Assembly (NCBI GenBank): GCA_046292385.1
Contig: JBKBRF010000024.1
Span: forward strand, 1 to 64,000
Origin: Armatimonadota bacterium
GTDB lineage: Bacteria > Armatimonadota > SYMT01
Length of the DNA stretch: 64,000 nt
Reading direction: 5' to 3'
Shown here: positions 31,601 through 34,600 of the stretch, one piece after another
Position numbering within the stretch: the first letter of the stretch is position 1
How the letters are laid out: each line of letters starts with the position of its first letter
Made by a program: the position numbers

Positions 31601-34600
31601 CATTCCAGTCCGTGAGCAGTATCCGGACAGACTACTGGTGCGGCAGCCGCTCGGCGGCGGCGAGGATCCGCTCGGCGATCTCATCCGGCGTTAGCTTGCT
31701 CGTGTCGAGCACCAGGTGGTAGTAGGCCGGGTCGTGGTAATCGATACCGTAGAGTTGCCGCAGGTTGGCGGTGTCCGCTTCGTCTCGCTCGGAGACCCGC
31801 GCGACCGCCTCTTCCAGGGAGTAGCCCGGCTCACGGGTGCGGAACCGCTCCGCGCGCACGTCCAGCGGGCAGTCGCAGAAGACGCGGAGGGCGTCCGGCA
31901 TCTCCCGGGCAAGGTAGCCTACGAGGCGCGCCTCGGCGATCAGGTTTCGCTCCTCGGAGAGGAGACGGAGCATGTCGGCGTCGAAATCGCGATGGATCTG
32001 GTCTCCCAGGTGGGAGATCTGCTGGGGGTCCAGGCCGCGCTCGGCACAGTACTCCCGGAAGCGGCCTCCGGTGCTGACGATGCGCCAGCCGGAGAGGCGC
32101 TCCAGCACCCGGCGGGCGGCGGTTGTTTTACCGGAAGCGGCGTCGCCACTGATACAGATGATGCGTGTCACGCTCCAATCATTCCCCGTGCCGGTGAGGT
32201 TTCCTGCAAGCAAGCCGCATCCCGGCCCGGATCACGCGGAGCGCGCGCCGCGGGTACGCGCGAGAGGACGAGTGGTATGACGATTCCGACGCCGCGCCTG
32301 GCGGCGCGCCTGAGTGAGCTGGTCCGGATTCCCAGCGTCTCCCCCGCGCACGGCGGCCCGCGTGCCGGAGAGCCGGGCGAAGCCCGCCTGGCGGCGGCGG
32401 TGGAAGCCGCGTTCCGGGAGCTGGGAGGGGAGACGCATCGCCAGGAGGTGGCTCCGGGCCGGCCGAACGTATTCGGCATCTGGCGGGGGGAGTCGCACGC
32501 CTGGATCGGGGTCGACGTCCACATGGACACCGTCAGCGTGGAGCAGATGCCGGGCGATCCGTTCAGCGGCGAGGTGAAGGACGGCCGGGTCTGGGGCCGG
32601 GGAGCGGTCGACACGAAGGCGACCCTGGCGGTGGTGCTCGCGCTGCTGGAGCAGGTGAAGGAGCGGGGCGCCCGCCTTCCCGCAAACCTGCTGGTCTGCG
32701 CTACCGTCGACGAGGAGCACGGCGCGACCGGGGCCGCCGCCGCCGCCCAGTGGATCCGCGACCGGGGCCTGCGCCTCTCCGAGCTGGCGGTGGCGGAGCC
32801 GACCCGCTGCCGTCCCGTCTACGCCCACAAGGGAGTGCTGCGGCTGGAATTCTGCGTCCGGGGCACCGCGGCGCACTCCTCGCAGCCGCACCTGGGGCAG
32901 AACGCCATCACTGCGGCGGCGGAGCTGATCCTGGCGATGCGCACCGAGAGCCGGCGGCTCGCGGCGCTGGAGGCGGACGGTCCGGTGGGGCTGCCGACCG
33001 TCACCGTCACCCGCGTGGAAGGGGGCCGGGGGCAGAACGTGGTGCCGGATGAGTGCCGCGTCTCGCTCGACTGTCGCCTGGTCCCGGGAGAGCACCCGGC
33101 GGAGGTGGCGAGCCGCCTGCGCGAGATCGCGGAGCGCAAGTGCCCGCTCCCGGTGGAGACGGAAGTGCTGAAGAAGATCGCCCCGTTCTACCAGGACCCG
33201 GAGGCGCCGTGGGTCCACCGCCTCGCCGGCTGGAGCGGCAGCGCGCCCGGCGTAGCACCTTACTGCACTAACGCCTGGGCCTACCGGGACGTCGCGGATC
33301 AGTGCGTCGTGATCGGCCCCGGCTCGATCGACCAGGCCCACGGCGACGAGGAGTGGGTGGAGCTGAGTGAGCTGGAGAAGCTCGCGCAGATCTACGCCCG
33401 CTGGTGGGGCATTTCGTCTGGTTAGCAGGTTGGCAGGTTAGCGCTGGTTCCAACCTGCAACCTGCTAACCTGCAACCTGCCAACCGGCGGCCCTACGCGC
33501 TCGACGCCGCTTTCTCCCGAGAGCGGGTGGTGCGGCGCTTGGCCGGCTTCTGGCGGCCGTCCGCGCCTTCCGGCGGTTTGCCATCGCCTTCCGGCTCCAG
33601 CGCGATCTCGATCGCTTCGGAGATCTCCCCCAGGAAGTGGAAGGTGAGCGTCTCCTTCAGCGCGGCGTCGATCTCCTCGTCCACGTCTTTCCGGTTGCGC
33701 TCCGGCAGCATGATCTCTTTGATCCCGGCCCGCCGCGCCGCCAGCACCTTCTCCTTGATGCCGCCGACCGGCAGCACGCGCCCGGTCAGGGTGATCTCAC
33801 CCGTCATCGCGACCCGCGGCCGGAGCTTGCGGCCCGTGAGCAGGCTGGAGATCGCCACCGCCATCGTCACGCCCGCGGAGGGACCGTCCTTCGGGATGGC
33901 GCCGGCCGGGACGTGGATGTGGATGTCGTGATTCTGGAAGAAGCTGGGGTCGATCCCCAGCGCTTCGGACTGCGAGCGGACGTAGCTGAGCGCCGCCTGT
34001 GCCGACTCCTTCATCACGTTCCCGAGCTGCCCGGTCAGCGTTAGATTGCCCTTGCCGTCCGGCATCGCGATCGCCTCGATGAAGAGGACGTCGCCGCCGA
34101 ACGGCGTCCACGCCAGCCCGGTCGCCACGCCGGCGTGGGAGACGCGGTCCTTCACCTCTTCGAACTCGAAGCGCGGCGCGCCCAGGTACTTGCGCACCTG
34201 CTCCTGGGTCACCTCGATCGACTCCTCGCGCCCCTCGGCGAACTCGCGGGTCGCCTTCCGGGTGATTGCGGCGACCTCTCGCTCCAGGTTGCGGACCCCC
34301 GCCTCGCGCGTGTAGCCGCCGATCAGGTAGCGGATCGCGTCGTCGTTCCAGGTGAGACGCTCCAGCGACAGGCCGTGCTCCTCCAGCTGCTTCGGGATCA
34401 GGTGCCGCTTGGAGATCTCGATCTTCTCCTCTTCCGTGTAGCCGGCGAGCTCGATGATCTCCATGCGGTCCCGCAGCGGCGGCAGGATCGTGTCGAGTAC
34501 GTTGGCCGTGGTGATGAAGAGCACCTGGGAGAGGTCGAACGGCACGTCGAGGTAGTGGTCCCGGAAGTCGACGTTCTGCTCCGGGTCGAGCACCTCGAGC

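Follow-up and report, generated by a model that had tools for sequence, protein, structure and literature searches.

A cytidylate-kinase-like protein as a candidate stand-in for guanylate kinase in a class of Armatimonadota

The kinase gene and its product

The window analysed here, a 64,000-nucleotide stretch of contig JBKBRF010000024.1, comes from an Armatimonadota genome of class SYMT01 (GCA_046292385.1, hereafter G000; 98.45% complete, 7.0 Mb in 91 contigs) and carries on its reverse strand a gene for a nucleoside-monophosphate (NMP) kinase, g03380 (database copy P0001). The mechanical open reading frame spans 31632-32213(-) and would encode 193 residues from a TTG start, the length adopted in the survey's finding; the frame itself is sound, but its start is not, since orthologues begin at an MKRI... 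position equivalent to a GTG at 32171 and the database copy has 179 residues. A GGAG lies close upstream of this GTG. The likely true gene is thus 31632..32171 (reverse strand, 179 aa), and the 14 codons at 32172..32213, an N-terminal extension absent from orthologues, are probably untranslated, so that the 193-residue form would be too long.

Downstream and co-directional with the kinase lies a gene for a two-CxxCH cytochrome c of ~188 aa (30824..31390, reverse strand), with matches to haem-binding families. A dihaem cytochrome c gene adjoins the kinase in six of the eight class loci that were read; we regard it as a conserved neighbour and claim no functional partnership. As a hint to function, gene neighbourhood gave nothing that points to nucleotide metabolism: this downstream cytochrome is all that the class loci have in common, and the neighbours read from sequence at Chloroflexota kinase loci are RecQ-like, DsbA-like and glucose-1-phosphate adenylyltransferase-like. 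Domain fusions (GAF-kinase, kinase-NUDIX, RNHCP-kinase and tandem kinase-kinase) likewise offered nothing guanine-specific, the models nearest to the kinase-NUDIX fusion being of NadM-Nudix and NAD diphosphatase types, far under their cut-offs.

The protein matches Pfam Cytidylate_kin2 (PF13189) over the full length of the profile (72.7 bits, cut-off 28; residues 18-173 on profile positions 1-176). Its top-scoring curated model is TIGR02173, for archaeal-type cytidylate kinase (Cmk), yet at 95.7 bits it falls under that model's cut-off of 102.1, and it is far from the bacterial Cmk model TIGR00017 (33.8 bits, cut-off 135.55). Among ten other members scanned of its clade, which comprises class SYMT01 and several Chloroflexota, two exceed the TIGR02173 cut-off (107.3 and 107.4) and eight score 48-102.0. 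Automatic annotation labels clade proteins as (d)CMP kinase or cytidylate kinase family protein. The guanylate kinase (Gmk) family PF00625 was missing from the 19 Pfam families matching g03380 at E ≤ 1, and Gmk chains in the PDB aligned with its P-loop only (residues 7-42, E 0.65-0.88).

An AlphaFold2 model of g03380 (pLDDT 94.9, pTM 0.89) has the five-stranded parallel sheet core, NMP-binding domain and LID of the P-loop NMP kinase fold, and matched 390 PDB chains at E ≤ 0.001, led by Cmk, adenylate kinase (Adk) and shikimate kinases. The motifs of this fold can be followed along the reverse strand. The Walker A motif GDAASGKT (residues 9-16; 32124..32147) agrees with the consensus GxxxxGK[ST]; column profiles give K15 in 94% of the clade and a typically acidic position 10 (E 58%, D 32%), compared with L or P in TIGR02173-type proteins. 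Alignment with HMMER to E. coli Cmk identified the NMP-binding motif STGGRFR (residues 33-39; 32055..32075), in which T34, F38 and R39 face S36, Y40 and R41. In HRDFD (residues 60-64; 31980..31994), also in the NMP-binding domain, D64 is conserved at 96-100% across all groups, whereas H60 is clade-specific (H in 91% of the clade, D in 70% of TIGR02173-type proteins). EARL (residues 80-83; 31923..31934) places R82 at phosphate-binding R131 of Cmk and L83 where Cmk has the cytosine-N4-binding D132. In the LID segment RDEADTAN (residues 129-136; 31764..31787), R129 and D133 align with R181 and D185, and N136 would occupy the position of R188 by ungapped counting from the HMMER alignment; this column holds K (50%), R (26%) or N (11%) in the clade, against R in 73% of TIGR02173-type proteins. 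Conservation within the clade reaches 91-100% at K15, R39, R82, R106, R109, R129 and D133, a set that includes the predicted acceptor-phosphate arginines R39 and R82. The roles of the Cmk residues in acceptor, phosphate and cytosine binding are those given in passages of PMC3603445 and PMC7259600. With the adenylate-kinase fold and intact catalytic residues, g03380 is predicted to transfer phosphate from ATP to a nucleoside monophosphate.

Distribution of guanylate kinase and of the g03380 clade

Searches of G000 with PF00625 and TIGR03263 returned best E-values of 0.8 and 0.06, both confined to the P-loop. A local profile made from four of the phylum's own Gmk proteins and searched with --max against 39,060 six-frame ORFs reached a best E of 0.001, again on a P-loop only, and the top tblastn matches were an ABC ATPase and RsgA; the survey's worry that a divergent Gmk had escaped detection was thus checked for G000 and met only P-loops of unrelated ATPases. 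PF00625 matched none of the eight class genomes (3.7-9.1 Mb; five at least 90% complete, three at 69-88%; G006 97% complete in 30 contigs), while all ten bacterial controls matched and none of the four archaeal ones did. Across 151 sampled Armatimonadota, 139 have Gmk at 109-178 bits, and the 12 without it are the eight class genomes plus G016, G031, G073 and G088. The earlier statement that Gmk is missing from this genome and its class is upheld by these counts. In 11 of 12 Gmk-bearing relatives whose loci were read, gmk adjoins a fused coaBC; in G000 the ancestral gmk-coaBC-metK-priA arrangement is broken, with an unrelated gene preceding metK-priA and with coaC and coaB unlinked, and no gmk remnant was found near metK or elsewhere in the genome.

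The kinase has the complementary distribution. It occurs in all eight class genomes (46-71% identity and E 3e-37 to 4e-82 outside G000 itself) and, at E ≤ 1e-15, in none of the 143 other Armatimonadota, the closest being G016 at 1.1e-14. The 151 genomes therefore divide into eight with the kinase and no Gmk, none with both, 139 with Gmk only and four with neither, in agreement with the survey both on confinement to the class within the phylum and on the existence of Armatimonadota outside it that lack both genes. As also reported there, g03380 stands beside other NMP kinases: G000 encodes one Adk, one thymidylate kinase (Tmk) and one bacterial Cmk (C2:308531-309172), and a normal bacterial Cmk is present in all eight class genomes at 221-258 bits. 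Because G000 encodes GMP synthase and Ndk while searches found neither PPK2 nor Gmk in it, the step from GMP to GDP is a real pathway gap. Motif patterns gave no convincing match to IMPDH in G000, the single candidate having no Pfam hit, a result from which we make no claim on guaB. A weak Tmk-like ORF on contig C42 was considered as a GMP kinase and rejected; it matches at the P-loop only, and the genes around it are for glycosyltransferase, polysaccharide deacetylase and nucleotidyltransferase.

The same kinase clade is also present in Gmk-less Chloroflexota, a finding new to this analysis; the survey had come across no second, independent lineage with the swap. Two lineages there combine presence of the kinase and absence of Gmk with Gmk-bearing relatives. 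In the first (G153 and 40 relatives, n = 41), 37 genomes have Gmk, and a kinase orthologue (77-100% identity) occurs only in G153, G156 and G157, three related Ktedonobacteraceae that all lack Gmk; the other 38 comprise 37 with Gmk and none with the kinase, G181 has neither gene, and no genome of the 41 has both. In the second lineage, G152 and G155 have the kinase and no Gmk, and among 39 further relatives in the sample 35 have Gmk and none has the kinase. G156 and G157 carry bacterial Cmk too. No bacterial Cmk was detected in G152, G153 or G155, genomes of unstated completeness, so that the CMP kinase of these genomes could simply be the clade protein. In the G152 copy the P-loop Lys is replaced by Thr, a change also seen in 23% of TIGR02173-type rows. 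In a sample of 301 Chloroflexota, the clade kinase was found in three of 11 Gmk-less genomes and in none of 290 with Gmk. In G151 (Chloroflexia) the kinase occurs together with Cmk and with a Gmk that is intact (130 bits). Counted by lineage, three of four kinase-bearing lineages lack Gmk; against a background of about 3-5% Gmk-less genomes, the chance of at least three in four is, roughly, 8e-5 to 5e-4. Genome-level Fisher tests overstate the link, since kin genomes are not independent.

Phylogenetic analysis placed the clade with a divergent set of sequences (group 2), opposite the TIGR02173-type Cmk (SH-aLRT support of 98 at the deep split and of 87 at the base of the clade; a FastTree tree also placed it outside that type). 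Proteins across the 98%-supported split score 112-202 bits on TIGR02173, and the nearest relatives of g03380 are bacterial, namely Chloroflexota kinases and GAF-kinase fusions. The clade is bacterial and lies inside a divergent group that is sister to the family of archaeal-type Cmk, and the proposal that the gene was taken from archaea finds no support: its closest kin are bacterial and the clade falls outside the group that passes TIGR02173. Of 20 clusters of relatives looked up, two carried an organism name, Anaerolineae and Woesebacteria. G016 and G031, both Gmk-less, alone in the phylum sample carry a true-P-loop TIGR02173-type kinase with a ParB-like tail. We set aside a reading of this fusion as two further swaps because the ~300-aa fusion family is also found in Vibrio navarrensis, Deltaproteobacteria, Bacteroidota and Oscillospiraceae.

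A candidate GMP kinase and competing explanations

Gmk is treated as a universal and essential bacterial enzyme and serves as a marker gene. We propose that g03380 acts in its place as a non-orthologous GMP kinase: its acceptor would be GMP or dGMP, and it would fill the GMP-to-GDP step opened by loss of the canonical gmk. We assign this reading a probability of about 0.55. Our one functional argument is the phyletic distribution, which is accompanied by the clade-specific residues, and from it we infer both acceptor specificity and physiological role. The survey's idea of a replacement is strengthened by the Chloroflexota lineages and by the pathway gap in G000, even as the archaeal origin that it proposed finds no support, and g03380 is a good candidate for the protein that replaced Gmk.

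It is possible, although we lean against it, that g03380 is instead an additional NMP kinase for a different acceptor, be it a second (d)CMP kinase, an enzyme of broad specificity or a kinase of some other nucleotide. GMP would then be handled by a promiscuous Adk or Cmk or by an unrecognised protein, and the link with Gmk loss would be indirect or would reflect the history of the lineages. The top family matches of g03380 are Cmk-type models, broad-specificity adenylate kinases have been proposed for Gmk-less organisms (in passages of PMC4177761 and PMC4508563), and the missing bacterial Cmk of G152, G153 and G155 fits a CMP role in those genomes. Coexistence points the same way: TIGR02173-type kin occur alongside Gmk and bacterial Cmk in all five Chloroflexota tested for both, which indicates that family members can be extra kinases of unassigned role, and G151 holds all three enzymes. 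Furthermore, Gmk-less genomes can do without the clade kinase, as seen in G031 (Armatimonas rosea, a cultured species; 98% complete), G073 (98% complete), G088 and G016 and in eight Chloroflexota; either other routes exist there or these genomes are incomplete. Such an account nevertheless leaves unexplained why Gmk is missing from three of four kinase lineages but from only about 3% of the sampled genomes without the kinase. A CMP role would moreover be redundant in the class, because all eight genomes retain bacterial Cmk, and another enzyme for GMP is hard to find in G000, which has a single Adk and no PPK2, and whose sole other Tmk-like P-loop ORF sits within a polysaccharide gene cluster.

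Two further explanations dispense with a replacement altogether. Guanine nucleotides might enter as diphosphates, for instance through polynucleotide phosphorylase, which would release NDPs from RNA, so that no GMP kinase would be needed; this has been proposed for a cultivated Gmk-less parasitic bacterium that a preprint (bioRxiv 10.64898/2026.06.21.733656) takes to live on host RNA. We consider this very improbable for the present organisms, as the class genomes are unreduced at 3.7-9.1 Mb and the 7.0-Mb G000, which encodes GMP synthase and Ndk, would make GMP and have to phosphorylate it. Still harder to credit is a canonical Gmk that is present but was missed, either too divergent or in unassembled sequence. 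The genomes are mostly metagenome assemblies, three of the eight in the class being less than 90% complete and the Chloroflexota being of unstated completeness, which leaves some room for this explanation. However, no class genome matches, G006 with its 30 contigs included; the phylum profile and tblastn found just the P-loops of unrelated ATPases; Gmk diverges little within the phylum, given the 109-178 bits of the other 139 genomes; and the gmk-coaBC-metK-priA arrangement is broken in G000.

Should g03380 indeed be a GMP kinase, Gmk would have been non-orthologously replaced, and more than once, a Cmk-like scaffold would be able to serve guanine nucleotides, and the annotation of clade proteins as (d)CMP or cytidylate kinases may be wrong. 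There would also be a concrete candidate family for the guanylate kinase gene of archaea, which a 2014 comparative study (PMC4177761) describes as unidentified, and for the sparse gmk and cmk of candidate-phyla-radiation bacteria described in a passage of PMC4508563. A wider version, in which the whole group-2 Cmk-like subfamily, mostly under the TIGR02173 cut-off, forms a second and unrecognised family of GMP kinases, seems unlikely to us; its holders are Armatimonadota, Chloroflexota and candidate-phyla-radiation bacteria such as Woesebacteria, with some archaea by Atlas leads only, and such a family might account for the guanylate kinase which that 2014 study called unidentified in archaea and which is poorly represented in Parcubacteria. 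To extend the role to the archaeal Cmk-like family is speculation, because TIGR02173-type members coexist with Gmk and Cmk and the kinase-ParB-like fusion is also found in Vibrio navarrensis. Full-text searches of literature outside subscription journals found neither such a replacement of Gmk nor a named archaeal GMP kinase.

Relation to known nucleoside-monophosphate kinases

The g03380 model is structurally closest to 3hdt (Clostridium symbiosum) and 3fdi (Eubacterium ventriosum), two uncharacterised Cytidylate_kin2 proteins deposited without known function. It matches them at TM 0.76-0.84 and an rmsd of about 2.5 Å, with only 15-19% sequence identity. Proteins resembling them, with a degenerate P-loop, are present in Gmk-bearing and Gmk-less genomes alike.

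With archaeal-type (d)CMP kinase (TIGR02173; PF13189), g03380 shares a short NMP-kinase architecture of ~175 aa together with the P-loop, G35, F38, R39, D64, E/D80, R82, L83, R106, R109, R113, R129 and Y141. Its clade differs at W29 (L/Y/F in TIGR02173-type proteins), C42 (A), H60 (D), E/D10 in the P-loop (L/P) and K/R/N136 (R), and by a D-Y-R/H motif at 144-146. Of these, W29, C42, H60 and K/R/N136 fall within the NMP-binding and LID regions. A further difference is that g03380 is found in bacteria that already hold a bacterial Cmk. PDB sequence and fold matches included no ligand-bound solved structure of a TIGR02173-type enzyme.

Bacterial Cmk (E. coli and Yersinia Cmk, T. thermophilus CMPK; PF02224, TIGR00017) has the same fold (Foldseek matches 3akc, 1kdo and 2h92, TM 0.66-0.75), and its S36, Y40, R41, R131, R181 and D185, as identified in the published passages cited above, correspond to T34, F38, R39, R82, R129 and D133. 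g03380 is ~45 residues shorter, however, and departs from Cmk at cytosine-N4-binding Asp132, replaced by Leu83, and at the R188 position, which is N, K or R in the clade. Gmk (PF00625, TIGR03263) is likewise a P-loop NMP kinase, but its sequence likeness to g03380 ends at the P-loop, and g03380 lies outside the Gmk family; what the two would have in common is the proposed reaction, ATP + GMP -> ADP + GDP, and their distributions are complementary.

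Guanylate kinase and its proposed counterpart in Armatimonadota

The survey's finding that class SYMT01 lacks guanylate kinase (Gmk) and carries g03380 was borne out: Gmk was detected in 0/8 class genomes (5/8 at least 90% complete), and g03380 as query matched all eight at 46-71% identity and none of the 143 other genomes of the 151-genome phylum sample at E<=1e-15. Gmk was present in 139/151 genomes (109-178 bits), the 12 without it being the eight class genomes plus G016, G031, G073 and G088. The sample therefore divides into 8 genomes with the kinase only, 139 with Gmk only, 4 with neither and 0 with both; in control searches, Gmk matched in 10/10 bacterial and 0/4 archaeal genomes.

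Within G000, the genome that carries the window (as contig C24; 7.04 Mb, 91 contigs, 98.45% complete), PF00625 and TIGR03263 returned P-loop matches only (best E 0.8 and 0.06), a phylum-specific HMM built from four Armatimonadota Gmk proteins and applied with --max to 39,060 ORFs from all six frames found no Gmk (best E 0.001), and the top tblastn matches were an ABC ATPase and RsgA. Adk, Tmk and bacterial Cmk are each encoded once, the last being conserved in 8/8 class genomes (221-258 bits). Because GMP synthase and Ndk are also encoded, while no Gmk and no PPK2 were found in this genome, the conversion of GMP into GDP is a real gap. A search of G000 for guaB using only IMPDH active-site patterns gave no convincing match, the single candidate ORF being without a Pfam match.

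In 11 of the 12 Gmk-bearing Armatimonadota loci read (L082-L093), gmk adjoins a fused coaBC, followed in several by metK and priA. In G000, priA and metK (C50:37059-41203) are preceded by an unrelated PQQ-like protein gene, and coaC-like (C17:99693-100442) and coaB-like (C20:82014-82862) genes are separate and unlinked, an arrangement in which gmk loss and coaBC splitting may represent one rearrangement.

The g03380 gene and its family

The mechanical ORF of g03380 spans 31632-32213 on the minus strand (193 aa, TTG start); we took the gene as 31632-32171, beginning at a GTG at 32171 with GGAG just upstream, which is the start in class orthologues and in the 179-aa database copy, P0001. The protein has a canonical P-loop (GDAASGKT) and scores 72.7 bits with Pfam Cytidylate_kin2 (cut-off 28). 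Its top NCBIfam model is TIGR02173, the archaeal-type (d)CMP kinase, at 95.7 bits, below the cut-off of 102.1; bacterial cmk (TIGR00017) reaches 33.8 of the 135.55 bits required. Top PDB sequence matches were bacterial Cmk and an archaeal Fap7-type kinase (E ~1e-6), and similarity to Gmk chains was confined to the P-loop. An AlphaFold2 model from 14 class sequences (pLDDT 94.9) lies closest in fold to 3hdt and 3fdi, both uncharacterised Cytidylate_kin2 structures, then to Cmk, Adk and shikimate kinases.

Around the gene, G+C in the window is 0.65 to 0.73. Directly downstream on the same strand lies a two-CxxCH protein of ~188 aa with haem-binding family matches (30824-31390, minus), a periplasmic-type cytochrome that occupies this position in 6/8 class loci read. 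An M20/M25/M40 peptidase gene (32271-33425, plus) is divergent from the kinase; the window also encodes a calcineurin-like metallophosphoesterase (29512-30363, plus) and a 268-aa ORF (28317-29123) without a Pfam match. Elsewhere in G000, a 223-aa ORF (C42:36101-36772; 8102-8773, minus strand, of locus L076) matches thymidylate kinase at the P-loop only and, lying among glycosyltransferase, polysaccharide deacetylase, ATP-grasp and nucleotidyltransferase genes, is probably part of a polysaccharide-modification cluster.

Searching 1.84 billion representative proteins with a profile yielded 6,368 matches at E<=1e-3, 41 of them at E<=1e-30. Trees of 159 rows (FastTree) and 84 rows (IQ-TREE quick; SH-aLRT 98) both showed a deep split between TIGR02173 passers (112-202 bits) and a second group mostly under that cut-off (48-107 bits), which also holds a Woesebacteria protein. 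There g03380 sits in a 34-row clade (support 87) with an Armatimonadota subclade (support 96), Chloroflexota kinases, one from an Anaerolineae bacterium, and GAF-kinase fusions. Its closest relatives are thus bacterial; the proposal that the gene was taken from archaea is not supported, and no direct archaeal donor is evident. Leads from the protein atlas were Chloroflexota, Gottesmaniibacteriota, Binatota, Spirochaetota, Thermoplasmatota and Nanobdellota. Fused forms comprise a tandem kinase-kinase protein (~375 aa, often with one P-loop lacking Lys), the GAF-kinase fusion (349-506 aa, from the group sister to g03380), and fusions of the kinase-NUDIX and RNHCP-kinase types; the proteins group as P0099, P0103, P0106, P0110 and P0128; P0101, P0108, P0111-P0113, P0115, P0116, P0119 and P0123; P0129 and P0169; and P0130.

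Independent lineages and the case for replacement

The survey had found no second independent lineage; a pattern scan using one genome per species placed the clade kinase (g03380 and its closest relatives) in lineages outside class SYMT01: G151 (Chloroflexia), G152 and G155 (Chloroflexota) and G153 (Ktedonobacteraceae). Only G151 among these has Gmk. When G153 was set among 40 relatives, 37 of the 41 genomes had Gmk, and the kinase orthologue (77-100% identity) was confined to G153, G156 and G157, none of which has Gmk; G181 lacks both. Bacterial Cmk is present in G156 and G157 and was not found in G153. Among G152 and 40 relatives, Gmk was found in 35 of 41 and the clade kinase was confined to G152 and G155; both lack Gmk, and neither yielded a bacterial Cmk. 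In the G152 kinase, the P-loop Lys is replaced by Thr. Of G151 and its 40 relatives, G151 alone carries the kinase, beside Gmk and Cmk. Two public kinase records titled Actinomycetes (L039) and Actinomycetota bacterium (L046) are proteins of G004 and G003, which the scan placed in the Armatimonadota class; the records are therefore not independent occurrences, and the depositors' labels seem wrong.

Across 301 Chloroflexota genomes, which come without completeness figures, Gmk was found in 290, and the clade kinase (>100 bits) in 3/11 Gmk-less and 0/290 Gmk-bearing genomes. Counted by lineage rather than genome, Gmk is missing from 3/4 lineages that carry the kinase, compared with a background of ~3-5% (rough P 8e-5 to 5e-4). 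The genome counts include G152, G177, G369, G395, G447 and G488, flagged as unpublished, and the claim for the G152/G155 lineage depends on G152.

For the hypothesis that g03380 has replaced Gmk as GMP kinase, the Ktedonobacteraceae trio gives at least one independent lineage that is clean, and G152/G155 one that is ambiguous; inferring from this distribution, we put its probability at about 0.55. Some Gmk-less bacteria manage without the clade, among them G016, G031, G073 and G088. G016 and G031, the latter being the cultured Armatimonas rosea (98% complete, 20 contigs), encode a ~300-aa TIGR02173-type kinase with a ParB-like C-terminal domain (L024, G016:C184, 1399-2481, plus; L028, G031:C4, 2633-3514, minus), confined to these two genomes in the phylum sample and belonging to a widespread family that includes Vibrio navarrensis among other taxa; precomputed PF02195 hits are recorded on three homologues. 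The Cytidylate_kin2 proteins of G073 (98% complete) and G088 all have a degenerate P-loop. Family members can also be extra kinases: a TIGR02173-type kinase whose P-loop (LSGLSGTGSS) lacks Lys, carried by 7/301 Chloroflexota (L058/L070 in G222, L059/L071 in G212, L069 and L072-L075) coexists with Gmk in 6/7 and bacterial Cmk in 5/5 tested, and is a third kinase beside them.

Comparison with known kinases

Full-text literature searches, supplements aside, turned up neither a described GMP kinase of Cmk-like type nor any account of Armatimonadota or Chloroflexota having lost Gmk. A 2014 paper gives the archaeal guanylate kinase gene as unidentified, with AK6-type kinases proposed (PMC4177761), another describes cmk, gmk and tmk as sparse in Parcubacteria (PMC4508563), and a 2026 preprint describes a parasite without Gmk that is proposed to draw on NDPs derived from RNA (10.64898/2026.06.21.733656).

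According to excerpts of two bacterial Cmk studies (PMC3603445, PMC7259600), Ser36 and Asp132 bind cytosine N4, Arg110 contacts N3 and O2, the latter also being bound by Arg188 (Gln178 in Thermus), Tyr40 stacks against the base, and Arg41 and Arg131 bind the phosphate. Aligned through the PDB sequence comparison, E. coli Cmk S36, Y40, R41, R131, D132, R181 and D185 correspond to T34, F38, R39, R82, L83, R129 and D133 of g03380, and ungapped counting from this alignment would place N136 at the R188 position. The residues specific to the clade are compatible with an altered acceptor pocket but do not single out guanine. In column profiles, Leu83 is common to the clade and TIGR02173-type kinases, from which the clade differs in having E/D rather than L/P at position 10, W rather than L/Y/F at 29, C rather than A (93%) at 42, H rather than D (70%) at 60, K/R/N rather than R (73%) at 136, and a D-Y-R/H motif at 144-146.
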